Positions 2,133 to 40,535 of a DNA stretch of 40,535 bases are shown in pieces. Source of the DNA: a virus; the IMG/VR virus record IMGVR_UViG_3300036832_000511, positions 1-40,535 of that record; one strand, given 5' to 3'. The notes beneath the pieces are model-generated. The model was not told the DNA's origin. It did no database searches and saw only the letters and a program-made list of their open reading frames with translations. A program made the translations under genes and the position numbers. How positions within the stretch are numbered: the first letter of the stretch is position 1; every line of letters starts with the position of its first letter.

Positions 2133-3638
2133 ATGGATGGTAAGGCTGAGTTTGTTTCCAGCGAGGACACCAGCATGCCTGCCAAGACCAGCCGTAAGCC
2201 TGCGAAATCGCAGGCCTTCCAACCCCGCTTCTTCAAGTGGCGCGACGGTCACCCGCGCTGGGAGCCGTCGCCCAAGTTCCGCCAGCTCGGCTGGAAGGGT
2301 TACGACTTCCGCGACCTGACGAGCGGCGCGTGGCTCACCCGCGGCGCGGCCTGCGATCTGGCCGATCAGATCAACGCCGCACTCGACGGCTGGCTGCGTA
2401 AGGAGCCGGTCCCGGAGTGGATGGGGAAACTCGCCCCGCATGGCGCCCATGCCATTACCGCCCCGGCGCCTGAGTCCTTCTCGGCCGGCGCACTCTCGAT
2501 CGGCGCGCTGCTCGACGACTATCTGGACGATCCCAAGCCCTTCAGGGACGTGCTCGCCGACGCCACGCGCCGGCAGTACCGATCCTGCATGAAGGTCCTG
2601 ATCGAGACGGTCGCGGCCGGCATGATGATGACCGTCGCCGAGCTGCGCCGCCAGGATATCGCCGTGCTGCAACTCTCCGACACCCCAGGTGCCCGCTTCC
2701 ATCTGCTCGACGCCTACGACGTCATCCACGCCCGCAGCCCGTCGATGGCGTACTCGACGCTCACCATCGCCACCGGCTGGTTCAACTGGATGCGGCGCAA
2801 GCGCAGCATCCGCGATCCGAACCCCTGCCTCGATATCCCCAAGACCCCGGTGCCCGGCCGCATCGTCACGCTCGACCAGACCGAGATCGACGCCCTGGTC
2901 GAGGTTTTCGAGTGGCTGGGCGTGCCGTCGCTCGGCGACATGGTCGTGCTCGGCGTCGACCTAACCTGGGAGCAGCAGAGCCTGATCAGCCTCACGTGGG
3001 ACCAGCTCGATGACGAGTTCTACGTCGCCGGGGCGCGCGAGAAGACCGGCATCAGCGGCATCCCGCGTCTTTCCAAACGCGCCATCGCCCGCATCGGCGA
3101 GATCCGACAGCGATGGATCGACGCCGGTGGCGCGACCGCAGATCTGCACGACAAGCACGTGTTCCTCTGTGAGCTGCCCTCCCGCCGCCAGCACTGCACC
3201 GAACATGGCTCGCAGACGTGCCTCCCATGCATCGGCCGCCGCTGGAAGGCTGACACCGTTCGCGAGTATTTCGAACTGGCGCGCGAGATCGCCAGCAGCG
3301 CGCCGGGCCTGCCACGCCAGTACGCCCGGCTCGATGACGGCAGTCGCGTCGGCTACCCCGCTATCCTCGACAAGCAGTTCCGAGATCTGCGCGACACCGG
3401 CATCACCCGCTGCGCCGAGGCGCAGATGACCTTCTCCGAGATCGCCACCCGCTCGCGTCACAGCGAGGCGACGATCGCCAAGATCGTCGGTAGCCACTAC
3501 CTCGAAAAGACCCAGCGCATGGCGGACTCGGCGACCGATAAGCTCGACGCCCTCCATGACGGTGAGGGTAGCCACCAGGCGGCCAAGCTCGCAAAGATGC
3601 GTACCCGCGCTGCTAAGTTGCGGCTGGTTAGCGGCTGA
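2133..3638 (+). CDS. int: Tyrosine recombinase / phage integrase (divergent). The likely real start is ATG 2175.
   Basis: The C-terminal box is RDLRDTGITRC...ATRSRHSEATIAKIVGSHYLE (LR..T / RHS / Y pattern). ATG 2175 has a GAGGA Shine-Dalgarno 9 nt upstream, whereas 2133 has none. The gene is adjacent to Xis and to a repeat-rich attP-like region. Confidence 0.75.
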   Translation: MDGKAEFVSSEDTSMPAKTSRKPAKSQAFQPRFFKWRDGHPRWEPSPKFRQLGWKGYDFRDLTSGAWLTRGAACDLADQINAALDGWLRKEPVPEWMGKLAPHGAHAITAPAPESFSAGALSIGALLDDYLDDPKPFRDVLADATRRQYRSCMKVLIETVAAGMMMTVAELRRQDIAVLQLSDTPGARFHLLDAYDVIHARSPSMAYSTLTIATGWFNWMRRKRSIRDPNPCLDIPKTPVPGRIVTLDQTEIDALVEVFEWLGVPSLGDMVVLGVDLTWEQQSLISLTWDQLDDEFYVAGAREKTGISGIPRLSKRAIARIGEIRQRWIDAGGATADLHDKHVFLCELPSRRQHCTEHGSQTCLPCIGRRWKADTVREYFELAREIASSAPGLPRQYARLDDGSRVGYPAILDKQFRDLRDTGITRCAEAQMTFSEIATRSRHSEATIAKIVGSHYLEKTQRMADSATDKLDALHDGEGSHQAAKLAKMRTRAAKLRLVSG

Positions 3639-4410: not shown

Positions 4411-6565
4411 CAGAGTAGACCGGCATGTTGGTGGCGCCGCCGCCGGCCGCCGCGCCTGCGAAGGCCGGCGTCCCCGATGCATCCGTGATGAACGCCCGCG
4501 AGCCGGCGCCCATCGTCACCGGCGACGGCAGCGCCGCGAACGTCCCGGTCTGCGGCTTGATCGGCACGGCCGAGACGAGCTGCGTCGGCCCGAAGGTCAT
4601 CAGCGTGACGCCGCTGTTGTACGCCACTATCCCGTTGGCGTTGATCTTCAGGGCCAGGTTGTTGCCGACGAAGATATCGTATTCGTTGGCGGATCGATTG
4701 TAGGTCAGATAGTCCTGCGCGTCGAAACCGAAGGTCGGGTTGCCCGACTGCATTTGCGCGTAGAACGCGACGTCGCCGAACTCTACTTCTTGGGCGGTCA
4801 GTGTACTGAACTTGGTCAGCCCGCCAAAGGATACGCCGATATCGACGTTCAGGTTGACCAGCACCCCGGTCAGCGAAGAAGTCATCGGCCCCGTAACGAG
4901 GCGATCGGCGAACACCAAGTTGCCGGCGCCAGAAATCGTTAACGTGTCCCAGACGTTGCCGAACAACTGCAGCAGCGAGTTGGCCGGGATATTCAAGGTG
5001 CCCGGGCAATGGATGACGTTCGAGCTGAGCGTCACCTTGGAGAACTGAACGGTCGGGTTGAGGATGAAGTTCTGCGAATAGAACTCATTGCCGTGGATCG
5101 CCCAGTCCGCCGGCTGCGTGGCGGCGTTCAAAGCAAACGCCGGCACGTTGGGGCAGTTGATCGTGCAGTCGGTGATGCACAGCCGGTTGAGGATGGCGCA
5201 GCTACTGTCCGTGTAGAACGCAGCCCCGCTGATGCCTTCCCAGTGACACTGCTCGAACTTGAACTCCAGCGCGTTGCTGTCGGTATGACTGACGCCCACC
5301 CATTCCACGCCGTGCCCTGGCGCGTTCACACCCTGATTGAACTGGCACTGGCTGAAGAACACCCCGTTCGGCCCCGCGCCCGCCGTGCCGCCGCCGGTGA
5401 TCCGCACATAAGCCGTGCAATTCAGGTCCGCGCCGCCGTTCTGGCCGAAGCGGCTTTGGCTAATGAACAGCTCCGGCCAGGTATTCACCGAGAGATGGAG
5501 GTTCGTGATCGCGGCTGTGTAGAGCTTCCGTCCGCACGAATGTATGCCGTAGGGCGGATCGGCCCGCCAGTTAAACCCGATGCCATGATTGCGCGAGCCG
5601 ATCTCATCAAGCGAAACCGCATAGCCGTCCTTCACGAAGACACCGAACGTACCAACCCCCGGTGTCCCGGCCGCCCGATCCACTGTGCATGACTTGAAGA
5701 CGGTGGACTTAAGATTGCCGCCGTCGCCCACCTGCACACAGGTCGCCACCCCCAGGTCGAACACCAGCCGCGTGCCGCCCACCAGATCGGGGAAGAACGC
5801 GTCGCCGATCAGCGCCACGCCAGACGGGATGACGATGCCGGCCGACAGCCGATAGGCCGCCGCCGCCATGCGGATCACGGTGTAGCCAGAGTGCAGCGCC
5901 GCCTGGAACGCCGGGTAACTGTCGAAGGCGAGGTTGCCGCCCTGCGCGCCCCAGTTCTCGACATAGGCTTGCGGCGCCTGCGAGGGCGGGAAGTTGGGCA
6001 GCCCCCAGAACTTTAGCCGGCCGCCGCTGTCGGTGCCCATCAGCATGTTGGGCTCGGCGCCGTAGGGCCACTCGTAGAACGCGCCGTTCTCGTCGACGCC
6101 CCAGAGCGTGCTGGGGATCAGCTCGACCAGCGGCGGGTTGACGCCCGGCGGGACGCGCAGCGTGCGCCCCTGCACGGTGTTCATTTCCTGCACCTGCCGC
6201 TCGACGTTATCCAGCGCATCCTCGCTCGACTTCGGCGAGAAGCCGACCATTTCGCCGAACGTCGAGGGCTGGCTGCGCGGCGTGCGGCGCGCCACCACGA
6301 TCTGCGCTCCCGGCAGCCACGCGCCGCCCGGGTCCAGCATGTACGCCGCCAGCGTCACGAAGCCGCCGTTGGTCAGGGTCGGGTTGTAGGCGGTCAACGT
6401 GTAGTCCGCGCCCTGGCTCAGCAGGCCGCCCCAGGTCACGCCGTCGTAGGTCAGATAGACCGCAACGTCGCTCGGCGCGTTGTAGGGCCAGACGGTGTTG
6501 AAGGGACCGAGCGTCGCGCCGGTCAGCGCATAGACCGACTCGGTGGTGACGGGCGTAACGCTCAC
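4385..6565 (-). CDS. Tailspike / tail fibre with a right-handed beta-helix (pectate-lyase-like) domain.
   Basis: GTG start at 6565. It has a tail-fibre-like N-terminal adaptor, then ENWGAQGGNLAFDSYPAFQAAL...VIPSGVALIG, typical of pectate-lyase-type tailspikes. Its position after the ejection proteins corresponds to T7 gp17. Confidence 0.7.
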   Translation of the reverse strand: MSVTPVTTESVYALTGATLGPFNTVWPYNAPSDVAVYLTYDGVTWGGLLSQGADYTLTAYNPTLTNGGFVTLAAYMLDPGGAWLPGAQIVVARRTPRSQPSTFGEMVGFSPKSSEDALDNVERQVQEMNTVQGRTLRVPPGVNPPLVELIPSTLWGVDENGAFYEWPYGAEPNMLMGTDSGGRLKFWGLPNFPPSQAPQAYVENWGAQGGNLAFDSYPAFQAALHSGYTVIRMAAAAYRLSAGIVIPSGVALIGDAFFPDLVGGTRLVFDLGVATCVQVGDGGNLKSTVFKSCTVDRAAGTPGVGTFGVFVKDGYAVSLDEIGSRNHGIGFNWRADPPYGIHSCGRKLYTAAITNLHLSVNTWPELFISQSRFGQNGGADLNCTAYVRITGGGTAGAGPNGVFFSQCQFNQGVNAPGHGVEWVGVSHTDSNALEFKFEQCHWEGISGAAFYTDSSCAILNRLCITDCTINCPNVPAFALNAATQPADWAIHGNEFYSQNFILNPTVQFSKVTLSSNVIHCPGTLNIPANSLLQLFGNVWDTLTISGAGNLVFADRLVTGPMTSSLTGVLVNLNVDIGVSFGGLTKFSTLTAQEVEFGDVAFYAQMQSGNPTFGFDAQDYLTYNRSANEYDIFVGNNLALKINANGIVAYNSGVTLMTFGPTQLVSAVPIKPQTGTFAALPSPVTMGAGSRAFITDASGTPAFAGAAAGGGATNMPVYSDGAVWRYG

Positions 6566-6569
6566 GGCG

Positions 6570-6722
6570 TCAGCCGCCGTGCAGGGCGCCCAAGGCCCAA
6601 ATGATCGCCGCGACCATGAAGCACGCGCGGGCGATGCGCTCGCCGTAGGGCACCGGCCACGTGGCGAGGAACCACAAGATGAAGCCGACGACGACGGCGA
6701 GCACGAAGAGCAGGTTCATCAT
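6570..6722 (-). CDS. Small two-TM membrane protein (50 aa), not in the supplied ORF track; holin-like candidate.
   Basis: Hand translation gives MMNLLFVLAVVVGFILWFLATWPVPYGERIARACFMVAAIIWALGALHGG. It fills the gap between 6757..9645 and the tailspike. Confidence 0.5.
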   Translation of the reverse strand: MMNLLFVLAVVVGFILWFLATWPVPYGERIARACFMVAAIIWALGALHGG

Positions 6723-21261: not shown

Positions 21262-21262
21262 C

Positions 21263-21745
21263 TCAGTTGTTGCGCCCCATGATCTGCCAGGCCAGCGACT
21301 GACCGTTCGCCGCGCCGGCACCGGCGATGGTGCCGATCAGCTCGATGCGCCCGCCAGGATCGCTGGCGTAGCCCAGATGCTGCCACAGCGGCTGGCCGAT
21401 CCAGGGCGGCGTCCACAGCACTTCGAAGTCCTGGGTGCCCACCGCGGCGACGTTCAGGGCGTTCGCCAGCGCGTTCGGGTGGGCGGCGTCACCGATGCTC
21501 AGCGTCACCCCGGCGCCCAGCGCGGTCCACCACAGATAGCTGTTGCCGTGGTCGATGTAGGCGGCCGATTTCAGCAGCCCGAACGAGATCGTGTCGCCGA
21601 TAGCGCCGCCCTGGAAGGTCACGTAGTCGCGGACCACCACGTGATCGCTGCCGTCCACGAAGCGGTTGGAGACGGCGCCGAAGCCGGTCGCCGCGAGGTT
21701 CTGCAGCGGCTGGCCGACGAGGCTCCCGTAAAACTTGGTCGCCAT
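21263..21745 (-). CDS. Paralog B of a tandem pair of about 160-aa virion-module proteins (candidate decoration or minor capsid protein).
   Basis: Aligns along its full length with 21756..22232 (shared SLVG.P.QNL, DGSD..VRD, GAGVTL.IGDAAH, ASDPGG.IEL, AWQI.GRN). Confidence 0.5.
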   Translation of the reverse strand: MATKFYGSLVGQPLQNLAATGFGAVSNRFVDGSDHVVVRDYVTFQGGAIGDTISFGLLKSAAYIDHGNSYLWWTALGAGVTLSIGDAAHPNALANALNVAAVGTQDFEVLWTPPWIGQPLWQHLGYASDPGGRIELIGTIAGAGAANGQSLAWQIMGRNN

Positions 21746-21755
21746 GATGGGCTCC

Positions 21756-22232
21756 TCAGATATTCCGCCCGACGATCTGCCAGGCGAAGTTCATGCCGTT
21801 GGTCGGCGCGGCGCCGCCAATCGTCGCCAGCAGCTCGATGGTCCCGCCAGGGTCGCTCGCCCAATTCAGCCGCTGCCACAGCGGAAAGCCCATCTGGACC
21901 GCTTTCGCCTTCGCAAGCGGCAATTGCCCCTGCGCCGCGAGGCTCATCGCGCTGTTCAAAGCTGACGCATGGGCGGCATCGCCAATGTTGAGAGTCACGC
22001 CAGCCCCCACTGCGTCGAAGAATACGTTGCTCCCCGCATAGTCGAGGTAGGCGGTCGACTTGAACACACCCAGCGAGATCACGTCCCCGATGACGTTGTT
22101 GTTGAACTGCACGACGTCGCGGACCAAAATTTGATCGCTGCCGTCCTTGAATAGATTGGGGACCAACCCGTAGCCGCTCGCCTGCAGGTTCTGCACCGGC
22201 GCGCCGACCAGCGAGCCAATGAGCTTTGCCAT
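21756..22232 (-). CDS. Paralog A of the tandem pair, immediately downstream of the major capsid gene.
   Basis: See the paralog alignment above. It starts 38 nt after the capsid stop. Confidence 0.5.
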   Translation of the reverse strand: MAKLIGSLVGAPVQNLQASGYGLVPNLFKDGSDQILVRDVVQFNNNVIGDVISLGVFKSTAYLDYAGSNVFFDAVGAGVTLNIGDAAHASALNSAMSLAAQGQLPLAKAKAVQMGFPLWQRLNWASDPGGTIELLATIGGAAPTNGMNFAWQIVGRNI

Positions 22233-32056: not shown

Positions 32057-32623
32057 TCAGGGTTCTTCGTCAGCTTCCGACGCCGCGCTTCCGACGCCGA
32101 TCGGCTCGCCTTCCAAAAGACCAATGAAATCAGGGTCTTGCTCATCGCCCGGCAGCTCGCCCATCGCCATGTCGGCGACGTCGCTTTCCGGAACGATGTA
32201 GACCGTCGCCGCGGGCGCCGAGCCGGCGTCGCGCGCCATCGGCTGAACCTGATGCACGTACTTCATCAGCCCCTCGCGCTCGCGCGTCAGGATGAGCCAA
32301 GCCTCGTACGGCTCGCACCCGAGCGCCTTGCCGAGTCGCTTCGCCTTGACAGCCATCGCCAGGCTCACCGGGTCCAGCCCTAGGTCGACCAAGCCGAGAT
32401 CCCGCGCCGCGTCCGGAGCGGCTTCGATCTCACCCGGCGTCAAGAGCGCCAGGTGCGCCGATTGCTGGCCTGGCGTCATCCCGCCGAACGTCGCCGCAAC
32501 CCAACGCGCCAGGTCGGTCGACCGCTTGTTCGGTGTCCCCGGCGCGCGCCCTCCCCGACGCTCCGGAAGGGCCCGGCTAGGCGTCGGCGCGGCTGAGCCG
32601 TTCAGGTGCGGCGCATCGGTCAT
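32057..32623 (-). CDS. Putative terminase small subunit / DNA-recognition protein.
   Basis: First gene of the late operon. The basic N-terminus RRGGRAPGTPNKRS and acidic C-terminal tail fit a TerS, as does its position upstream of TerL, although it is separated from TerL by a 273-bp gap. Confidence 0.4.
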   Translation of the reverse strand: MTDAPHLNGSAAPTPSRALPERRGGRAPGTPNKRSTDLARWVAATFGGMTPGQQSAHLALLTPGEIEAAPDAARDLGLVDLGLDPVSLAMAVKAKRLGKALGCEPYEAWLILTREREGLMKYVHQVQPMARDAGSAPAATVYIVPESDVADMAMGELPGDEQDPDFIGLLEGEPIGVGSAASEADEEP

Positions 32624-32682: not shown

Positions 32683-32946
32683 TAGTTCCCGCCCTAGTTC
32701 CCGTTCTCCCTCTCTATCTTATTGATTTACCTCAACTATCTATCTCGGGAACTGCGGGAACTACGGGAACTACGTGTGTCGCGCTAGGCGCGCAGCCGCC
32801 CCGCGCGCGGCGTTCACTTCGCGCGCGCGCGATCGCGAGTCGACCTAGTTCCCCTAGTGTCTCTAGTTCCCAGACCCCTAAGCCATTGATCCGGCTCGGC
32901 TTTCTCGGGAACTAGGCTTGCGCCGCTGGTAGTTCCCGTAGTTCCC
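32683..32946. repeat. Iteron-like array: ten copies of TAGTTCCC / GGGAACTA around an AT-rich core (32711-32746).
   Basis: Copies on one strand at 32683, 32695, 32846, 32864, 32930 and 32939. Copies on the other strand at 32747, 32756, 32765 and 32907. The array includes a 9-bp tandem triplet GGGAACTnC. Confidence 0.8.
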
Positions 32947-33016: not shown

Positions 33017-33078
33017 GGGGTGCGACATGGGGTGCGACACTGTCCTGAATTGACGCCAGTAACTGGCATCGCTAGAAG
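33017..33078 (+). promoter_or_regulatory. Promoter P1 of the rightward small-gene module, with an upstream tandem repeat.
   Basis: TTGACG (33050-33055), a 17-nt spacer, then TAGAAG (33073-33078). It is preceded by the tandem repeat GGGGTGCGACAT / GGGGTGCGACAC (33017-33040). Confidence 0.5.
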
Positions 33079-33133
33079 CTCAATCACCGCCGCGGAATGA
33101 ACCGCCGCGGAGAGCCTTAAAGGGACTAACCCG

Positions 33134-33337
33134 ATGACCATCGTGAACACGCTCGCCGACGTCGCCGCCTACGCGCTGAATCTGGCGCCGTTCGGCTTCG
33201 CCGCCGCAACCCTCGCCCGCATCGCCCGCGTCGAATGCGACGACACCGAAATGGCGTTCTTCGACGCCAGCGGCGAGCACCTGGCGAGCTTCTTCGACCG
33301 CGGCCACGCCTCCTACGCCTACGGCTACGGCGCCTAG
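33134..33337 (+). CDS. Hypothetical protein (67 aa).
   Basis: AGGGA Shine-Dalgarno-like box upstream of the ATG. GC3 is high. Confidence 0.55.
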   Translation: MTIVNTLADVAAYALNLAPFGFAAATLARIARVECDDTEMAFFDASGEHLASFFDRGHASYAYGYGA

Positions 33338-33341
33338 GCGA

Positions 33342-33400
33342 CTGACGCTCAGCGACGGGCCGGTGCGCCGGCCCGTCCACTGAGCGCCAGGCATCCCGCC
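33342..33400 (+). repeat. Intergenic hairpin element, copy A.
   Basis: CTGACGCTCAGCGACGGGCCGGtgcgCCGGCCCGTCCACTGAGCGCCAGGCATCCCGCC. The stem spans 33347-33385 and there is no U tract. Confidence 0.85.
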
Positions 33401-33424
33401 AGGCGCCGACTAGGGAACTACCCG

Positions 33425-33718
33425 ATGAAACTGATCACACTCGAAATCGCCGGCTGCGCGGCCATCGTCGTCACCTGGGACAACTTGCGCCTCCCCGATG
33501 CGGTGTTCACCAGCGCGCACGATGCCGCCGCATGGGCCGAAACTCAGGCGATGTACTTCGTCGGTGAGCCCAACCGCGGCGTCGCAATCTGCAACGGGCG
33601 CCTGATCCGTGCTCGCGACTGCTTCTCGAAGCGTCACTTCATGCTGGCGTTGCAGGACGCGCGCCGCGGCAAGCCTGTCGGCGAGCGGTTCGGCGCCGCC
33701 GATCTCGCCGCGGTCTGA
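33425..33718 (+). CDS. Hypothetical protein (97 aa).
   Basis: GGGAACTA box followed by CCCGATG. A complete ORF. Confidence 0.55.
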   Translation: MKLITLEIAGCAAIVVTWDNLRLPDAVFTSAHDAAAWAETQAMYFVGEPNRGVAICNGRLIRARDCFSKRHFMLALQDARRGKPVGERFGAADLAAV

Positions 33719-33775
33719 CGCTCAGCGACGGGCCGGTGCGCCGGCCCGTCTACTGAGCGCCAGGCATGGCGCCAA
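33715..33775 (+). repeat. Intergenic hairpin element, copy B.
   Basis: Near-identical to copy A, with one change in the bulge (TAC for CAC). Confidence 0.85.
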
Positions 33776-33799
33776 ACTGTCGCACATCGATGGCGCATG

Positions 33800-33834
33800 C
33801 TGTCGTTGACCTGGGACAGTCACTAGCCTAGAGA
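33800..33834 (+). promoter_or_regulatory. Promoter P2 with an operator-like box.
   Basis: TTGACC (33806-33811), a 17-nt spacer, then TAGAGA (33829-33834). The box CTGTCGTTGACCTGGGACAG is shared with P3. Confidence 0.5.
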
Positions 33835-33887
33835 CGACACCAACGGGTGACGGCAATTCAGCCGCGCCAGTAAAGGGAACTAACCCG

Positions 33888-34682
33888 ATGACTAGCTTCG
33901 ATCCGCGACGTTTGCTGTCGACGGACAGCGCCAAGGCCGTTAAGGCGCAAGGCCACGGATGGCTGAACGGCATTCACTACATGGCGCCTCACGCCAGCGG
34001 CGGCGCCGGCAATCTGTGCTCGCACGCTTCGACCGAGTGCATCGCGCTCTGTCTCGGCTGGTACTCGGGCCAGGCAAGCATGGTCCGCGATATCGAGCAC
34101 GACACCAACGGGGTTCGGGCCGCTCGCATCGCCAAGGCGCAAGCCTTCATGCACGACCGCAACGCCTACCTGAATCACCTGGCGCGGCGCATCGTCGCGC
34201 TAGAGCGCCAGGCGGCGCGGGACGACTTCCGGCCGTGCGTCAGGCTCAACGGGTCGACCGACGTCGCCTATGAGCGCATGAGCTTTGCGCTGGACGCGAA
34301 AACCGCCCGCATCACCGGCCGGCGCGAAGGCGAGCGCATCACGCTGCTGGCGCTCTTCGCCCATGTGCAATTCGTGGACTACACGAAGAACCCGAACCGG
34401 CTGGACAAGGCGCCGGCCAACCTGGCGCTCACGCTGAGCTTTGCCGGCGACAACGAAGCGGCGTGCGTCGCCGCGCTCAGCCGCGGTCACAACGTCGCCG
34501 TGATCTTTGCCGGCGCGTTTCCCGCCACGTGGAACGGGTTTCCCGTGATCGATGGCGATCAGCACGATTTGCGGCATCTCGATCCGCGCAACGTCGTCGT
34601 CGGGCTCTCCCCAAAGGGCGCCAAGGCGAAGGCGCACACCGGGCCGATGGTGGTCCGCGAGACGCTGGCGCTCGCCGCCTAG
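33888..34682 (+). CDS. Conserved phage protein resembling the 'gene product 88' (GP88) family; function unknown.
   Basis: Motifs are AKAVKAQGHGWLNGIHYMAPHASGG..NLCSHASTECIALCLG...VRLNGSTDVAYE...FVDYTKNPNR. The family recognition is from memory and needs HMM confirmation. Confidence 0.45.
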   Translation: MTSFDPRRLLSTDSAKAVKAQGHGWLNGIHYMAPHASGGAGNLCSHASTECIALCLGWYSGQASMVRDIEHDTNGVRAARIAKAQAFMHDRNAYLNHLARRIVALERQAARDDFRPCVRLNGSTDVAYERMSFALDAKTARITGRREGERITLLALFAHVQFVDYTKNPNRLDKAPANLALTLSFAGDNEAACVAALSRGHNVAVIFAGAFPATWNGFPVIDGDQHDLRHLDPRNVVVGLSPKGAKAKAHTGPMVVRETLALAA

Positions 34683-34687
34683 GCCGG

Positions 34688-34746
34688 CTGACGCTCAGCG
34701 ACGGGCCGGTGCGCCGGCCCGTCCACTGAGCGCCAGGCATCCCGCC
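34688..34746 (+). repeat. Intergenic hairpin element, copy C.
   Basis: Identical core to copy A. Confidence 0.85.
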
Positions 34747-34771
34747 TCGCGCCGACTGAGGGAACAACCCC

Positions 34772-34981
34772 ATGAGCAACCTCTACACGCCGAAAGCCCG
34801 CAAACACGCCGATCTTGGCGCCGGGCTCCACGCCAATCTCTCCGTGTTTGACGACGGCGCGACGCTGGAACTCTGGACAGAGGCGGCGGCGCCGTGGTCG
34901 CAAGTCGTCCCCGCGTTCCGGCTCTCCCTCACGACCGCGCATGTCGCCGCGCTGCGTAAGCTCCTGGCCCAAAAGGGCTGA
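34772..34981 (+). CDS. Hypothetical protein (69 aa).
   Basis: A complete ORF with a GAGGGAA box upstream. Confidence 0.5.
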   Translation: MSNLYTPKARKHADLGAGLHANLSVFDDGATLELWTEAAAPWSQVVPAFRLSLTTAHVAALRKLLAQKG

Positions 34982-34990
34982 CAACATGTC

Positions 34991-35042
34991 GCACTGTGTC
35001 CCGCTACCTGTCGTTGACATGGGACACTGTGCGGCCTATTTC
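34991..35042 (+). promoter_or_regulatory. Promoter P3, flanked by an 11/12 inverted repeat.
   Basis: TTGACA (35014-35019), a 17-nt spacer, then TATTTC (35037-35042). The inverted repeat GCACTGTGTCCC (34991-35002) / GGGACACTGTGC (35021-35032) brackets the -35. Confidence 0.5.
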
Positions 35043-35159
35043 TGGACAGGCAGGCCGTTGCGGACCTGGAGCCTCTCGGGGCGGCCAGACAATCCGGCGC
35101 AAGGGCGGCGAGTGCGGGGGGCGCCACGTCATCCCCCCGCTAACCCCTTCCTGGGGGAC

Positions 35160-35399
35160 ATGATCGTGACCACACACACCGACACCATCCGCGGCTATGA
35201 CGTCACCGCGGAAACCTGCACGGACCCGAACGACCCCGCCCGCGGCGAGTGGGTGGACGTCTTCGTGACGACCGCGGATGGCCGCTTCACCAACAGCCTG
35301 GCGTTGCTGGGCGACTTGGGCCGCTTCGACGACGGCCCGGCGATCTCCGGGTCCGCGGTCGACGCGATCACCCGCTGGGCGATCCGCCGCGGCTACTAG
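35160..35399 (+). CDS. Hypothetical protein (79 aa).
   Basis: Internal start MIVTTHTD of track ORF 34815..35399, with a GGGGGA box upstream. GC3 is high. Confidence 0.5.
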   Translation: MIVTTHTDTIRGYDVTAETCTDPNDPARGEWVDVFVTTADGRFTNSLALLGDLGRFDDGPAISGSAVDAITRWAIRRGY

Positions 35400-35402
35400 C
35401 CC

Positions 35403-35460
35403 GCTGACATTCAGCAGACGGACGGCATCGACCGTCCGTCATCTGAGCGCCAGTGCTCGC
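35403..35460 (+). repeat. Intergenic hairpin element, copy D (co-varying).
   Basis: CTGACATTCAGCAGACGGACGGcatcgaCCGTCCGTCATCTGAGCGCCAG. The outer flanks are conserved. The inner stem has a different sequence but still pairs. Confidence 0.75.
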
Positions 35461-35481
35461 AACAGGGAAAGGACCCCACAC

Positions 35482-35997
35482 ATGAACACCCGCCACGATC
35501 TCACCCCCGAGCAGTCCGCCGCGCTGGAGGCGTTCGCCGAGCAGCACGGCGCCTGCGAGCAGGGCGCCCGCAAGTGGCGCGAGAAGCTGGGCGACGGCTG
35601 GATGCGCGCCGCCTTCCCCGGCGCGCTGCAGCAGGTGCGCAACCAGTTCGGGCCGACCTGGCTGCACAACGACTACGCCTGGGGCTGGCGCGCCACCTGC
35701 CCGGCCTGGGAAGCGCCGGTGTGGATCAGGGACGACGCGGGCCGCTCGAAGGGCCTGGAGAACGCCGCCGACGCCATCAAGTGGAGCGGCAAGGGCTTCG
35801 CCCCGCCGCCGCTGGGCGCCTTCGTCCACTCCACGCACTGGAAGTGCGACGGCCAGGTGACCGGCTACTTCGTGCAGGCCGGCTGGTTGGGCCTGATCGT
35901 CAAGTTCCGCGTCCCGCCGGCCGACTACGTGGAGCGCGAGGGCGGCAACTTCCCCGTCCACGTGTTCGGCGCCGAGGTCACCTTCGCCGGCGGCTGA
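35482..35997 (+). CDS. Hypothetical Trp-rich protein (171 aa).
   Basis: Internal start MNTRHDLTPEQ of track ORF 35278..35997, with an AGGGAAAGGA box upstream. Confidence 0.5.
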   Translation: MNTRHDLTPEQSAALEAFAEQHGACEQGARKWREKLGDGWMRAAFPGALQQVRNQFGPTWLHNDYAWGWRATCPAWEAPVWIRDDAGRSKGLENAADAIKWSGKGFAPPPLGAFVHSTHWKCDGQVTGYFVQAGWLGLIVKFRVPPADYVEREGGNFPVHVFGAEVTFAGG

Positions 35998-36005
35998 CAT
36001 ACACC

Positions 36006-36040
36006 GACACCTGGCGGCCTTGACCGGGCCGCCAGGTGTC
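36006..36040 (+). repeat. Fifth intergenic hairpin (14-bp stem, unrelated sequence, no U tract).
   Basis: GACACCTGGCGGCC ttgacc(g) GGCCGCCAGGTGTC. Confidence 0.7.
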
Positions 36041-36070
36041 ACCTATTCAGGACACAGAAAGGAACCACAC

Positions 36071-36340
36071 ATGCCCACCATCAAGAGCCTCGGCGCCGAC
36101 GCCAGGCACCACGCACTGCTCGCCAGCCTGCCGCAGCGCGCCATCGACACGCTGGCGCGTATCGAGGACGACCGGCGCGCCGTCACCCGTGGCAAGCGCG
36201 CCACGGAGACGACGCTGCAAAGCTTCCCCTACATGTACGCCGCCGACCGCGTCATCGAAACGCACACCGGGTTCGCCCCCGAGCGCGGCGTCGACACGCT
36301 CGCCGTGCTCGCCGCCGCCTGGGAGGCGCAACCCGCATGA
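36071..36340 (+). CDS. Hypothetical protein (89 aa).
   Basis: Internal start MPTIKSLG of ORF 36020..36340, with an AAAGGAA box upstream. Confidence 0.5.
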   Translation: MPTIKSLGADARHHALLASLPQRAIDTLARIEDDRRAVTRGKRATETTLQSFPYMYAADRVIETHTGFAPERGVDTLAVLAAAWEAQPA

Positions 36341-36618
36341 GCACCGACTGGAACATCGGCAAGCCGCCGCCCAAGGTGCGCCCGCCCAACTACGCGGTCG
36401 TCGTCGTGGCGTTCGGCGAGCGCCTGTTCGGCCCGCAATGGGCGGCCGGCGTGGCGCGCCTCACCGGCGTCAACAAGCGCACGCTGAGCCGCATCTACGC
36501 GGCGGCGAAGGACGAGCGCGACTACCCCGCGGCGCGGGGCGTGCTCGCCGCGCTGGAAGCCAGCCTGGCGCCCATCCTCGCCGACCTCGGTCCGTGGGCG
36601 AAGCACGCCAGCGACTGA
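36337..36618 (+). CDS. Small putative HTH DNA-binding protein (93 aa), last gene of the rightward module.
   Basis: ATGA overlap with the previous gene. It contains the HTH-like segment AAGVARLTGVNKRTLSRIYAAA. Confidence 0.4.
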   Translation: MSTDWNIGKPPPKVRPPNYAVVVVAFGERLFGPQWAAGVARLTGVNKRTLSRIYAAAKDERDYPAARGVLAALEASLAPILADLGPWAKHASD

Positions 36619-36646
36619 CGCCCGCCCCCACAACCCAGCACGAAAG

Positions 36647-36688
36647 AACCCCCGGGCGCCGGCTAGCTCCCGGGGGTTCCGCTTTTCC
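36647..36688 (+). terminator. Rho-independent terminator of the rightward module.
   Basis: AACCCCCGGG, a 12-nt loop, then CCCGGGGGTT, followed by CCGCTTTTCC. Confidence 0.7.
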
Positions 36689-36794
36689 TGGGTCACCCGT
36701 CGCCACGTTCATCGGGGGGGCGATTGCCGGTGGCGAACATCGTAGGCGCTCAGGTCGAGCACCAGCGGGGATTGGCTGGTCCGCTGGTTCCCTT

Positions 36795-37216: not shown

Positions 37217-39124
37217 TCAATCCTCCTCGTCATCGACCCCGACGTCGCCGTGGGCCAGCATATCAGCAATCCGCAGCCTGATCCCTGCGGTCGCGCTGAG
37301 AAACCCCACCTTGCACTTCGCCTGCGCCTCCCAGAGCCCCGCCGGCGCCTGCCGCAGCGCGTAGGCCCACGGGCCGGGTGCGCCGGCCAGACCTGACCAA
37401 TTGGTCCCTTCGAACAGCTCGCGCACGCCAGCGTGGTTGGACGCCACGAAGAGCAGCGCGTGCTCGAAGTCCTGCGGATCGCCCTGGTGGAACACCACCT
37501 GCATGCCGACCTGGGGCAACCGCTCCCGGCAGTCCAGCAGGAACGCCGGGGTTTCCTTGAACTTCAGCAGCAACGCGCCAACCGACGTCTCCTTGCGCTG
37601 GCGGAAGACCTCGGCCTTTGGCTTGGCGTTCAGCATCTGGGTGAAGCAACGCCACCATGTGCTCTCGCGGGTGTTCAGCTCGTTGAGCTTCCGCGGATCG
37701 AGCCACCGCTTCCAGTCCTCCAGCTCGCCGAGTTCCGGCATGTCGTCGCGCAGCGCGGTGTGACAGCCCGCCATCAGCGGCGCGAACGTGTCGGCGCTGC
37801 GGTCGTTGTGGCCGGCGTCGACCAGCGCCTGGCGGCAGGTGTCTTCCAGCTCGTCCCACCTCGCCCACCAGTCCATGACTCGCTTGAGTAGCTCCCGGCC
37901 GCAGGCCTGCGCCCACTTCGGATTGATCTCGAGCCGCTCGCCGACCTTGTCGCGCTCGCGCAGCATGACCAGCGCCATCCGCGAATCGTCCTGCGCCTCG
38001 GTCGCCGGCTTGTTCACCGCTGACGCCATGAACGCCGAGCGCGCCAGGAAGTTCTGGCCGACGCCCTCCTTGCCGCCGCGGTGCATCTGGTCGCCCGAGT
38101 AGCCGATCCGCATCAGGGCCAGAATGTCGCTCTTGCGCCGCCGCTGCCCGTCGTCCGCCTCCAGTTCGTCGACCAGCACCGCGATCGAGTCCTGGCCCAG
38201 GAACTGGTAGATGCCGGCCGGCGTGGTGTCCGACGTCGCCATCAGCGCGCGATCCATGACGAGGCGCAGCAGCTCATGCAGCGTCGACTTGCCCGAGCCC
38301 TCGCCGCCATGCACGAAGAGCAGCGGCCGGCGCCGCACCGCGCCGCCGATCTTCGCCATCATCACCCAGCCCAGCGTCAGGCGCGCATCCAAGTCCGCGC
38401 GATCCCAGTTGAAGCTCTGCAGCATCTCCAGAAGCTGATCGCCGGGACTGCCGATGCCCTCGGGCTGGCGGCGCAGCGATGGGCGCCCGATCGCCGGCCG
38501 ATCCGGGTAGGCGCAGCCGTCGAGGACGAGCCCGCTGGGGTGCCACTCCGAGCCGATCAGGATGCAGTTGCCGGCGTGGTAGATCAGCTCGCCGGCCGCG
38601 CCGCGGTGCGCGCCCCGGCCCCGGATCTCCAGCTCGCCGCCCTCCAGCTTGGCGCAGGCCGCCATCAGCAGCTCGCGCAGCCAGTCGGCGTCGAAGCCGG
38701 TGACCTGGGAGGGCCTGACCACATGGCCGGCGCGGTCGCGCTTCGGCTCCGAGTTGCGCGGGCAGGCCCACTTCATCCAGTTCTCGCGGCCGGCGAAGAC
38801 GCCTTCCAGCACGCTCTTGCCGGCGCTGCCCGACTTGAACTCGCTGATCTGGCCGCTGGTGTCGATGAACCCGAACAGCACGCCGCGCTTGTAGATCGGC
38901 GTCACCGGACAGCCTGGCGGCAGGCCGCTCTTCGGGTCGGCGTAGTCCTGCCACTTGCCCGGCTCCAGCATCACGACGTCGCCCGCGTCCTTGCCCACCT
39001 GCCAGGTCAGCGGCGCGCCCGGCAGCGGATCGCGCCGGCCCGCCTGGCGCAGGAACTCGCTGCGCTCCTGCTCGAATGTCAGCGTCGTCAGCGCCGACCC
39101 GATCTCGTCGATGCGGTCAGCCAC
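37217..39124 (-). CDS. SF3-type (D5/P4-like) replicative helicase / NTPase.
   Basis: GTG start. Walker A is FVHGGEGSGKSTL, Walker B is IAVLVDELEAD, and a motif-C-like SAFMASAVN follows. It lies downstream of the primase. Confidence 0.65.
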   Translation of the reverse strand: MADRIDEIGSALTTLTFEQERSEFLRQAGRRDPLPGAPLTWQVGKDAGDVVMLEPGKWQDYADPKSGLPPGCPVTPIYKRGVLFGFIDTSGQISEFKSGSAGKSVLEGVFAGRENWMKWACPRNSEPKRDRAGHVVRPSQVTGFDADWLRELLMAACAKLEGGELEIRGRGAHRGAAGELIYHAGNCILIGSEWHPSGLVLDGCAYPDRPAIGRPSLRRQPEGIGSPGDQLLEMLQSFNWDRADLDARLTLGWVMMAKIGGAVRRRPLLFVHGGEGSGKSTLHELLRLVMDRALMATSDTTPAGIYQFLGQDSIAVLVDELEADDGQRRRKSDILALMRIGYSGDQMHRGGKEGVGQNFLARSAFMASAVNKPATEAQDDSRMALVMLRERDKVGERLEINPKWAQACGRELLKRVMDWWARWDELEDTCRQALVDAGHNDRSADTFAPLMAGCHTALRDDMPELGELEDWKRWLDPRKLNELNTRESTWWRCFTQMLNAKPKAEVFRQRKETSVGALLLKFKETPAFLLDCRERLPQVGMQVVFHQGDPQDFEHALLFVASNHAGVRELFEGTNWSGLAGAPGPWAYALRQAPAGLWEAQAKCKVGFLSATAGIRLRIADMLAHGDVGVDDEED

Positions 39125-39392: not shown

Positions 39393-40477
39393 CACGCCGC
39401 TCCCTTCAGCCAGTCGTTGAAGTCGTTGCCGACCTCGCTGCGGGCGACGTCGAGCTGCCGGCCGCGCGCCTGCCGGCGCCAGTGCGCCAGGGTCCGGTCG
39501 AACGCGGCGCGCGCCACCTCGCCCCAGTCGTTGTCCTGCAGCAGGATCACGTGGTCGGCGCAGTCAGGCCAGGCGAGCTTCGCCATGTGGTCGACCGAGC
39601 CGGCCGCCCAGGTGCGCCAGGCCGGCATCGCGGCGGCGACCGAGAGCGTCGTCTCGATGCCCTCGCCGATCGCCAGCGGGCCCGCCACGCCCTTGCGCGC
39701 CGCCTCCGGGGCCGAGAGGCCGCTGGGCCCGCGCGTCAGCCGGATCGCGCCGCCGATGGTCGGGCCTAGCATCTTCTTCGGCCGGTGGACGTCCGCCTTG
39801 CCCAGCCCGTCTGGCCGCAGCCAGGTGCGGTGGACGCCGCTCACCCCGACGTCGTCGCGCGTCATCGCCGCGACCATCGCCGGCCAGTAGGTGATCTCGC
39901 CCGTCTCGTCGTCCTTGTGCTGCAGCCGCTCGCAGTAGCGCAGGGCGGCGAGCCGGTACTTCGGCGCGCCGATGCGCTCCAGCGGGATCGAGCGCGCCTC
40001 GCGCAGGTAGACGTCGGCGAGCGTGCCGGTGATCGGCGCCAGCCCACGCCACCACGTGAAGAGCCGGTGCGAGTAGCTGCGCCGCTGCGCCTCTTCCCTC
40101 GATCGACGCTGCCGGCGCTCAGCCTCGGCGCGCTCGCGCTCGATGCGCTGCTCGGCCGCCGAGCGCACCGGCAGATCGGCCCACCCGAGCCAGTTCACCG
40201 ACCACTTCAGCGCGTCGATGAACTCGTTGAGCCGCAGCACGTAGCGGATGAGTTCGAAGACGTCGCCGCCGTCGCCGGTCTGGAAGTCGTGGAAGCCGCC
40301 GGCCTTGTCGCCCGCCACCCAGATCGCGAACGCGCCCTTGGCCCCGGGCGAGCGCGGGTTCTGGGTGTTCACCACGCTGCCGCGCACCCGCACCGCGAAG
40401 CCCAGCGCGTCCAGCAGATCGGTGACCCGGAGCTGCAGCTCGCGGCGCACCCGATCCTTGTCGGGGAGTTGGCTCAT
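39392..40477 (-). CDS. Toprim-domain DNA primase with a Cys-less zinc-ribbon-like N-terminal domain.
   Basis: The Toprim glutamate box is LAIGEGIETTLSVAA and the DxD box is ILLQDNDWGE. The N-terminus NPRSPGAKGAFAIWV..GGFHDFQTGDGGDVFELI resembles the primase zinc-binding domain but lacks the cysteines. Its start overlaps the stop of the 66..698 gene across the circular junction. Confidence 0.65.
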   Translation of the reverse strand: MSQLPDKDRVRRELQLRVTDLLDALGFAVRVRGSVVNTQNPRSPGAKGAFAIWVAGDKAGGFHDFQTGDGGDVFELIRYVLRLNEFIDALKWSVNWLGWADLPVRSAAEQRIERERAEAERRQRRSREEAQRRSYSHRLFTWWRGLAPITGTLADVYLREARSIPLERIGAPKYRLAALRYCERLQHKDDETGEITYWPAMVAAMTRDDVGVSGVHRTWLRPDGLGKADVHRPKKMLGPTIGGAIRLTRGPSGLSAPEAARKGVAGPLAIGEGIETTLSVAAAMPAWRTWAAGSVDHMAKLAWPDCADHVILLQDNDWGEVARAAFDRTLAHWRRQARGRQLDVARSEVGNDFNDWLKGAA

Positions 40478-40535
40478 GCCGCCGCCTCCACGTTCCGCGT
40501 CGAGGTTCGCGCGATCGACAGCAACAGGTCGCGGA
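40409..40535. repeat. Terminal overlap copy 2, identical to 1-127.
   Basis: Exact 127-nt match to the start of the window. Confidence 0.95.

Follow-up and report, generated by a model that had tools for sequence, protein, structure and literature searches.

The small-gene module and its junctions

The uncultivated virus record IMGVR_UViG_3300036832_000511 (40,535 nt, about 68% GC) was analysed over its full length, referred to here as the window. It carries a module of eight small genes (g1 to g8, 33134-36618), which is the sole long block on the + strand and converges on a primase-like gene. Four of the gene junctions in this module hold copies of a GC-rich imperfect hairpin, which we call the E element (E1 to E4), and a fifth holds another hairpin (hairpin 5), so that the five of seven junctions at which an earlier note on this DNA had placed hairpins are all borne out. 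At the remaining two, a promoter-like site and a structured leader take the place of a hairpin between g4 and g5, and g7 and g8 overlap by ATGA. Comparative analysis shows that the sense-strand fold of the E element is maintained by selection, and E is best read as a phage-specific family of intercistronic RNA stem-loop linkers. Features of the window are given below. Bit scores refer to the covariance model R1, which was built on 20 copies of E and applied to the window and to 225 kb of related loci.

2133-3638, + strand: integrase gene, with only a generic phrog_1 match and no NCBIfam model at E <= 0.01
33020-33078, + strand: putative promoter P1, with two copies of GTGCGACA (33020-33027 and 33032-33039), TTGACG (33050-33055), a 15-nt spacer and GCTAGAAG (33071-33078)
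33134-33337, + strand: g1, 67-aa ORFan without a Pfam, PHROG or NCBIfam match
33342-33390, + strand: E1, 73.3 bits; its linker extends to the ATG at 33425
33425-33718, + strand: g2, 97-aa ORFan with its TGA stop at 33716-33718
33715-33763, + strand: E2, one mismatch to E1, 70.3 bits
33778-33834, + strand: putative promoter P2, with TGTCGCAC (33778-33785), TTGACC (33806-33811), a 15-nt spacer and CCTAGAGA (33827-33834)
33888-34682, + strand: g3, 264 aa, GP88 family (PF17338, phrog_1617)
34688-34736, + strand: E3, core identical to that of E1, 73.0 bits; its linker extends to the ATG at 34772
34772-34981, + strand: g4, 69 aa, family D
34987-35042, + strand: putative promoter P3, with TGTCGCAC (34987-34994), TTGACA (35014-35019), a 15-nt spacer and CCTATTTC (35035-35042)
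35046-35159, + strand: structured leader of about 115 nt, 3' of P3
35160-35399, + strand: g5, 79-aa ORFan
35404-35453, + strand: E4, the commonest subtype of the E family, 73.1 bits; the next ATG is at 35482
35482-35997, + strand: g6, 171 aa
36006-36049, + strand: hairpin 5 with putative promoter P4; 15-bp stem 36006-36020/36026-36040, -33.5 kcal/mol, z = -7.0
36071-36340, + strand: g7, 89 aa
36337-36618, + strand: g8, 93 aa, family A
36646-36688, + strand: module terminator, a hairpin (36646-36679) followed by the U tract CGCUUUUCC
37217-39124, - strand: primase-like gene, 635 aa

The promoter-like sites share the format TTGACN, 15-16 nt, (G/C)CTA(G/T)(A/T), with starts at 33050, 33806, 35014 and 36020. 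The sigma-73 promoter consensus of Caulobacter is TTGACGS-N10-14-GCTANAWC, and likeness to it suggests that all four (P1 to P4) are promoters of this Caulobacter type. Read from these putative promoters, the transcription units would be P1-g1-E1-g2-E2; P2-g3-E3-g4; and P3-leader-g5-E4-g6-hairpin5/P4-g7-g8-terminator. E2 closes the first unit, directly 5' of P2, and the other three E copies are internal to operons. The layout of P1 recurs upstream of the module in L171 and L172 (L numbers denote loci of related phages), and the module is also closed by analogous hairpins in L166, L167, L171 and L172. No pair of TTGAC and -10-like boxes was found in E1-E4 by reading and none in an E. coli-type promoter scan, and the corresponding terminator scan of the module flagged no E copy, such scans being uninformative on sequence of this GC content. 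A sigma-54 or other promoter within the E tail was rejected by eye, as the spacings are unsuitable.

Anatomy of the E element

A 53-nt core, CTGACGCTCAGCGACGGGCCGGTGCGCCGGCCCGTCCACTGAGCGCCAGGCAT, occurs at 33342-33394, 33715-33767 and 34688-34740 with 0, 1 and 0 mismatches, where chance would yield no such site. The three near-identical copies described in the earlier note are therefore real, although the shared core measures 53 nt rather than 59. The entire 73-nt linkers of E1 and E3 are 96% identical, though they lie between unrelated genes. A gapped pattern of the outer flanks matched exactly four sites in the window, the fourth being E4, again with none expected by chance.

In the E family the lower stem pairs CUG-A-CGYUCAG with CUGAGCG-C-CAG over 11 positions, one of which is an A.C mismatch. 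It is followed by an internal loop, whose 5' strand has a C and at most one more nucleotide and whose 3' strand has 2 nt, by an upper stem of about 10 bp whose sequence varies freely, and by an apical loop of 4-7 nt. In all copies the helices sum to 3 + 7 + 10 = 20 bp around an internal loop of 1-2 by 2 nt. The lower stem of E1 is CUGACGCUCAG/CUGAGCGCCAG with the A.C mismatch, and its upper stem of 10 bp is capped by a UGCG loop. In E4 the upper stem GACGGACGG/CCGUCCGUC pairs as had been noted, but it is not wholly unrelated to the other inner stems, with which it shares GACGG...CCGUC. The E4 stem is followed by the tail GUGCUCGC, then AGGGAAAGGACCCC and the ATG, and the nearest relatives of E4 are copies in L171, L172c and L002. 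The tail in E4 and most relatives runs GUGCUC(A/G)C, GGGAAAGGACCCC, ATG, and that in E1 and E3 runs GGCAUCCCGCC...AGGGAAC(U)A...AUG. The module hairpins have folding energies between -32 and -46 kcal/mol, and against shuffled sequences their z-scores run from -3.5 to -7.0 (-3.5 to -4.5 for E1-E4).

The element is coupled to the codons on both sides. In the window its TGA, the first three bases of a conserved TGAC, is a gene stop only at E2, where it ends g2. The view that the element starts at the stop codon thus holds for E2 and fails for E1, E3 and E4, at which the upstream gene stops at a TAG whose first base lies 8-9 nt before the element TGA. Over the whole set of copies, the TGA ends a long open frame with a GC content at third codon positions of 0.86-0.98 in 15 of 21, and because of this frame the TGA is taken to be the true stop codon of the upstream gene in those copies. 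Where a gene follows directly, it starts 22-35 nt past the stem, usually with a standard, conserved ribosome-binding region. A role of the TGA and hairpin in readthrough, or one like that of a selenocysteine insertion sequence, was considered and rejected; L001 is the only case in which the frame past the TGA runs on to the following ATG in phase (judged by eye), and the separate upstream TAG at three window copies is also against such a role.

Covariation and the folding strand

The alignment used for covariation (A1, made with MAFFT) holds 20 copies from nine contigs, which are related sequences and include several near-duplicates. Standard pairs make up 95.8% of its paired cells, compared with 34-45% when the 3' partner is slid by 1-3 columns. 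Changes on both sides are seen in 13 of the 20 pairs (45 cells). None of 500 shuffles matched A1 in any of five pairing measures, a control whose significance is overstated by the kinship among the copies. RNAalifold, to which the fold was not supplied, returned essentially the same structure with 14 covarying pairs. At least nine distinct upper stems exist among the copies, and all of them pair. The lower stem shows compensation as well, from UCAG/CUGA to UCGG/CCGA, UCUG/CAGA or UCAA/UUGA. Selection on structure had been proposed from one swapped stem, and the proposal now stands on the full set of 20 aligned copies.

The paired columns contain 19 G.U against 5 A.C combinations, and therefore the coding strand is the folding strand. 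Every E copy lies in the sense orientation between small early genes, and R1 scores on the reverse strand are 25-45 bits lower. The 3' strand GAGCGCCA, C15 and the A.C mismatch (A of the TGA opposite C51) are invariant in 20 of 20 copies, and the 3' strand stays constant even where its 5' partner in column 9 varies.

Such constancy would suit a dedicated sequence-specific factor that binds E, either an RNA-binding protein of phage or host (translational operator or antiterminator) or RNase P, with GCCA, an RCCA-like motif, as its target. We consider this reading improbable. It would account for the invariant strand, mismatch and C15, for the near-identity of many copies within the same genome, and for a small alternative hairpin that the 3' strand can form with the tail (GAGCG-CCAG-UGCUC, with CGCUC variants). 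Against this, the module proteins show no RNA-binding, nuclease or antiterminator domain in Pfam, PHROG and NCBIfam scans, and the upper stem of E4 is unlike those of E1-E3 in the same genome. For RNase P, the CCA would have to be unpaired and the 9-49 pair intact, but 7 of 20 copies lack that pair. A tRNA-like reading of the GCCA motif was set aside, since ARAGORN detected neither a tRNA nor a tmRNA.

Antitermination sites of the nut type are promoter-proximal, number about one per early operon, and consist of boxA and a 15-nt boxB hairpin; put sites have two stem-loops. E follows genes, occurs up to twice per unit at 290-670 nt from the promoters, and is a single two-tier hairpin of 48-50 nt. 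The suggestion in the earlier note of nut- or put-like sites was dropped for these reasons, and the lack of a promoter-proximal position likewise counts against a dedicated factor.

Distribution of the element and the question of a host repeat

About 25 copies of the E element are spread over 12 contigs, all from related uncultivated phages that also count prophage-like regions of Caulobacteraceae genomes among their relatives. Pattern scans of IMG/VR detected it in four contigs (L001-L004), to which a second viral scan added nothing real. Contigs reached through primase homologues (L164, L165, L166, L171, L172 and L173) carry E in an equivalent convergent small-gene module. The covariance-model search of relatives that had been proposed recovers E in related phages. 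Real copies all scored at least 59.7 bits and long variants 31-64 bits, with nothing else in the window or the 225 kb, and loci picked solely for flanking-word matches reached at most 38 bits. A profile-based search yielded 16 more distant relatives, only one of which has a weak, probable copy (L198, 10062-10127). E is also absent from the more distant L168 and from L169 and L170 (Caulobacter hibisci and Brevundimonas assemblies), and a search for close relatives by the primase protein alone gave no match. In Rfam, the whole window has no match at gathering thresholds and, by E-value, only sub-threshold look-alikes that are mostly miRNA precursors. Megablast with the whole module gave no match among GenBank phages, and blastn with single linkers gave only chance matches among GenBank phages and PLSDB plasmids. 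We know of no published description of the E element.

It is most improbable that E has no phage function and is a selfish repeat of the host, of the repetitive extragenic palindromic (REP) or miniature inverted-repeat transposable element type, or a palindrome kept perfect by template-switch mutation. E does share with such repeats a GC-rich imperfect palindrome in multiple intergenic copies, near-identical inside one genome. Its occurrence speaks against this origin. A metagenome scan for the common subtype returned 21 stretches, of which one alone is real, on the phage contig L179 (identical with L004); nothing but related phages came from the viral scans, and GenBank phages and plasmids gave no match. 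There is no further copy elsewhere in the window, nor one in the Caulobacter hibisci and Brevundimonas loci. Copies keep a single orientation, locked to the stop codon and the ribosome-binding region, and the conserved mismatches are never corrected. In the reference-genome scan with the outer-flank pattern, which hit at least 120 loci, all among the matches listed were single chance matches inside coding sequence, encoding peptides of the type Leu-Thr-x-Ser ... Leu-Ser-Ala. The generic host repeat that the earlier note had held against its own proposal is thus missing from the viral, metagenome, phage and plasmid searches, and from the genome scan so far as its matches are listed. A host REP repeat is therefore unlikely on this distribution.

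Exchange of genes between the linkers

Comparison of gene content between hairpins in relatives, also proposed earlier, showed a constant order of backbone families with differing ORFans. Protein clustering of eight modules gave the order C, B (GP88), E, D, A, with unrelated ORFans between these families and with E elements or promoter hairpins at the junctions. Homologues of g3 are present in L171, L172 and L173. The family D gene (g4 in the window) likewise has an E element 5' of it in L166 and L171, and family A (g8) lies at or near the module end in 8 of 8 modules compared. The C-terminal 100 or so residues of g6 resemble an L001 gene flanked by two E copies (judged by eye and not from an alignment). 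In blastn comparisons of L164 with L004 and with L166, homology extends to the 3' end of the E linker and no further; different ORFans come next, and shared sequence resumes shortly before family A, at the promoter hairpin. The linker is conserved over its full length from stop to start although the ORFans on either side are otherwise unrelated, and for this reason it probably also acts as a homologous joint for ORFan swapping, as a secondary consequence that the breakpoints support. These exact block ends support the earlier suggestion that the hairpins are hotspots at which small cassettes recombine.

It is unlikely, in our view, that recombination at the DNA level, with the linker offering homology for ORFan exchange and the hairpin incidental or assisting, is the primary function. 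The breakpoints at the linker edges, the hyperplastic region in which families C, B, E, D and A are kept with differing ORFans between, the duplication of the entire E1/E3 linker, and the precedent of recombination and mini-circles at the promoter-early stem-loops (PeSLs) of T4-like phages (PMC2839356, PMC4122927) all agree with it. The upper stem, however, varies among phages, which cuts the homology where it would be needed, and yet its pairing is kept. The excess of G.U over A.C and the strict sense orientation also point to a single-stranded, transcribed form. As a secondary role, exchange at the linker is compatible with the function in mRNA that we favour below.

A proposed function in mRNA processing

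With about even confidence, and by analogy with known phage sites, we propose that E is an intercistronic linker acting in mRNA processing or stabilisation and in insulation of the downstream ribosome-binding region. The fold would work within a polycistronic early mRNA, where the interrupted helix of about 20 bp would define an RNA 3' end. Most likely the host RNase III would cut within the internal loop, in the way known from the early-region sites of T7; partial termination or a block to 3' exonucleases is a weaker alternative. The upstream cistron would then keep a protective 3' hairpin, and the downstream cistron would begin with a standard, context-independent ribosome-binding region. 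The RNase III route is favoured on geometry: substrates of RNase III have about two helical turns (roughly 20-22 bp), often with an internal loop, and the interrupted 20-bp helix of all E copies has these dimensions.

Several points, besides the kinship among the aligned copies, weigh against this proposal. The RNase III step is drawn from analogy only. RNase III needs no invariant sequence, yet GAGCGCCA, the A.C mismatch and C15 are constant in all 20 copies; the invariant 3' strand and mismatch point to an additional sequence-specific partner, which processing does not explain. Template switching in quasi-palindromes can mimic compensation without selection, although the mismatches that are never corrected argue against such an origin. 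Near-identity of copies inside one genome could mean recent duplication and not function. Moreover, the two-turn helix is not universal, as the same slots in relatives hold hairpins of 24-25 bp (L167) or 5-8 bp.

Termination offers another explanation. If the E copies were factor-independent or factor-assisted attenuators, the first gene of each unit would be made in excess, P2-P4 would restart transcription, and the cassettes would be insulated as they are by the stem-loops of T4 PeSLs. We regard this as unlikely, though next in rank after the favoured proposal. It fits the unit pattern of promoter, gene, E, gene, the GC-rich and very stable hairpins, the place of E2 directly before P2, and the overlap of hairpin 5 with P4, a composite terminator-promoter like the terminating kind of PeSL (PMC2839356). 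The sequences after the hairpins do not fit it. No U tract follows E1-E4 or hairpin 5, and the E tails are GGCAUCCC or GUGCUCGC, unlike the real terminators of the module and its relatives, of which the hairpin at the module end has CGCUUUUCC. Canonical intrinsic termination was rejected on this ground, which upholds the earlier view of the E elements. There is also no hairpin between g4 and P3, and simple termination would leave the internal loop, the invariant 3' strand and the 20-bp length unexplained.

Comparison with known linkers

RNase III substrates in E. coli typically span two helical turns, and internal loops limit cleavage to one strand, leaving a protective 3' hairpin (PMC1540722). 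The R1.1 site of T7, a 60-nt intercistronic hairpin of the early region with an internal loop, is cleaved by an alphaproteobacterial RNase III (PMC6121014). E resembles the T7 sites in being a hairpin about 50-60 nt long between the cistrons of a polycistronic early mRNA (PMC6121014, PMC1540722), with about two turns, an internal loop and several similar copies per genome, and the product expected from E is the same, an upstream mRNA ending in a protective hairpin. The differences are an internal loop of 1-2 by 2 nt, against 4 by 5 nt in T7, a far higher GC content, one invariant strand, a stop codon in the stem, and no homology.

PeSLs of T4-like phages are likewise conserved cassettes that span from stop to start and contain a GC-rich stem-loop together with a standard Shine-Dalgarno region, located in an ORFan-rich hyperplastic region where breakpoints of indels and replacements fall inside the cassettes (PMC2839356, PMC4122927). 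The E linker also occupies the stop-to-start space beside ORFans in such a region, and the blastn blocks that end at it indicate recombination between copies. Among PeSLs, hairpin 5 with P4 has its counterpart in a subclass whose stem-loop overlaps the -35 box. Unlike PeSLs, E1-E4 have no sigma-70-type early promoter, and only hairpin 5 and P1-P3 fit a Caulobacter-type promoter. The 20-bp two-tier stem with conserved mismatches differs from a short polyG/polyC stem, and the setting here is a temperate podovirus-like phage of a high-GC alphaproteobacterial host, with no sequence similarity to PeSLs.

In Cluster K mycobacteriophages, SAS is a 13-bp motif, GGGATAGGAGCCC, a few nucleotides from the start codon, and ESAS adds 17-bp imperfect inverted repeats (PMC3203893). 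The asymmetric start-proximal motif there resembles GGGAAAGGACCCC here (PMC3203893, PMC12699233). Inverted repeats with a variable spacer precede the motif in about half of the cases, and SAS/ESAS are confined, in one orientation, to the non-structural half of temperate phage genomes. The authors saw little support for an ESAS mRNA hairpin, whereas the repeats of E covary strongly (PMC3203893). The ESAS half-sites are conserved in sequence, whereas the upper stem of E is free to vary, and hosts and sequences are unrelated. Membership of E in SAS/ESAS was rejected: the start motif is similar but not identical, and strong covariation is the opposite of the published description.

Integron attC sites are imperfect hairpins of one orientation at the 3' end of small promoterless genes, with a conserved stem base bearing unpaired bases, a variable apex, sometimes a stop codon inside, and homogeneous copies within an array. 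These traits are shared by E. Unlike attC, E lacks the RYYYAAC/GTTRRRY core and ends in CUGAC...GCGCCAG, and its arrays have just 1-4 sites. No integron integrase is encoded in the window; the lone integrase lies 30 kb away and matched phrog_1 only, with no NCBIfam match at E <= 0.01, a negative that covers the curated integron-integrase model if the release holds one. An attC site proper was thus rejected. It is very improbable that the folded sense strand of E is an attC-like recombination site served by a different recombinase or by the replication-recombination machinery, in which case the module would be an integron-like array of ORFans and linkers, with the invariant GAGCGCCA strand and the A.C mismatch serving as recognition features.

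E resembles known phage intergenic stem-loop cassettes in kind, with no match in deposited phages. Covariation in 13 of 20 pairs and the lack of a counterpart in Rfam make it a well-supported candidate for a structured RNA of a new type. The principle of joining accessory genes by a standard linker, which is known from T4 PeSLs and suspected for mycobacteriophage ESAS, recurs here in an unrelated high-GC phage lineage, and the RNA fold of the E linker is clearly under selection. Should E serve in processing and insulation, this would account for the expression of newly acquired ORFans whatever genes lie next to them, and the engineering of Caulobacter and other alphaproteobacteria would gain a compact insulator of natural origin.

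Hairpin 5 and other linker classes

The earlier note grouped the hairpin of the fifth junction with the others, but it is not a variant of E. Its stem has 15 pairs rather than 14 and carries in its loop the -35 box TTGACC (36020-36025), followed 16 nt on by CCTATTCA (36042-36049). Hairpins with TTGAC in the loop also occur in L164 (4037-4135), L166 (11017-11120), L167 (4639-4729), L165 (7733-7828) and L173 (13230-13318). They have stems of 12-15 bp and a -10-like box 15-18 nt later, and the stems differ among phages yet pair. Their sequences point to a second, promoter-bearing linker class, a putative composite of terminator and promoter that is distinct from the E family.

The nearest primase relative, L167 (59% identity), has no E element. 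Another hairpin family of 24-25 bp in two or three tiers fills the E slots there (4913-6627, - strand), beginning at the TAG stop, which forms the first stem bases (UAGGCGCC...GGCGCCUA). A further motif, CGCGCTCGACGCGCGCCA(A/G)(A/T)GGGCCC...GGGCCC(A/G)AAGGCG, recurs between genes in two phages (L171, 10039-10149 and 11049-11234; L002, about 5270-5375, - strand) and is probably an additional class of structured linker. The leader 3' of P3 also sits 5' of unrelated genes in L001 and L171. RNAalifold on these three sequences only gave 33 pairs, 5 of them with double changes, and Rfam gave no match; the leader may move together with its promoter as a cassette, or it may be a cis-regulatory RNA.

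Phage context and further repeats

The phage is temperate and podovirus-like, and its terminase, portal, capsid and tail genes are all on the - strand. Bases 1-127 are repeated exactly at 40409-40535, which is most simply the overlap of a circular assembly from an assembler run at k = 127 and not a biological terminal repeat, judged by the repeat length alone. The window is read as a complete circular assembly, and the genome would be 40,408 bp if the repeat is such an overlap. Homologues of the primase-like protein are found on metagenomic contigs of 40-42 kb and in genomes of Caulobacter, Phenylobacterium, Brevundimonas and Asticcacaulis; because of the latter the host is probably a member of the Caulobacterales.

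The GTGCGACA/TGTCGCAC boxes lie 11-21 nt upstream of the -35 box at P1 (two copies), P2 and P3, and also occur upstream of the module in L164, L165, L166, L167, L171 and L172. They are probably the operator of a regulator common to these phages. By eye, g8 has a helix-turn-helix-like stretch, LTGVNKRTLSRIY, with no match to a database family. The octamer GGGAACTA is present in 11 copies where 0.19 would be expected. Nine of them (32683-32946) form arrays in both orientations between a leftward gene (32057-32623) and P1 and look like iterons or an operator array, and two (33413-33420 and 33875-33882) constitute the ribosome-binding regions of g2 and g3. Relatives have repeats of their own at the corresponding place, GGCAACCG in L164 and L166 and GGAACCGC in L165. 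In the structural-gene region, two pairs of direct repeats of 140 and 171 nt, about 490 nt apart and 71-72% identical (21262-22211), suggest an internal domain duplication.

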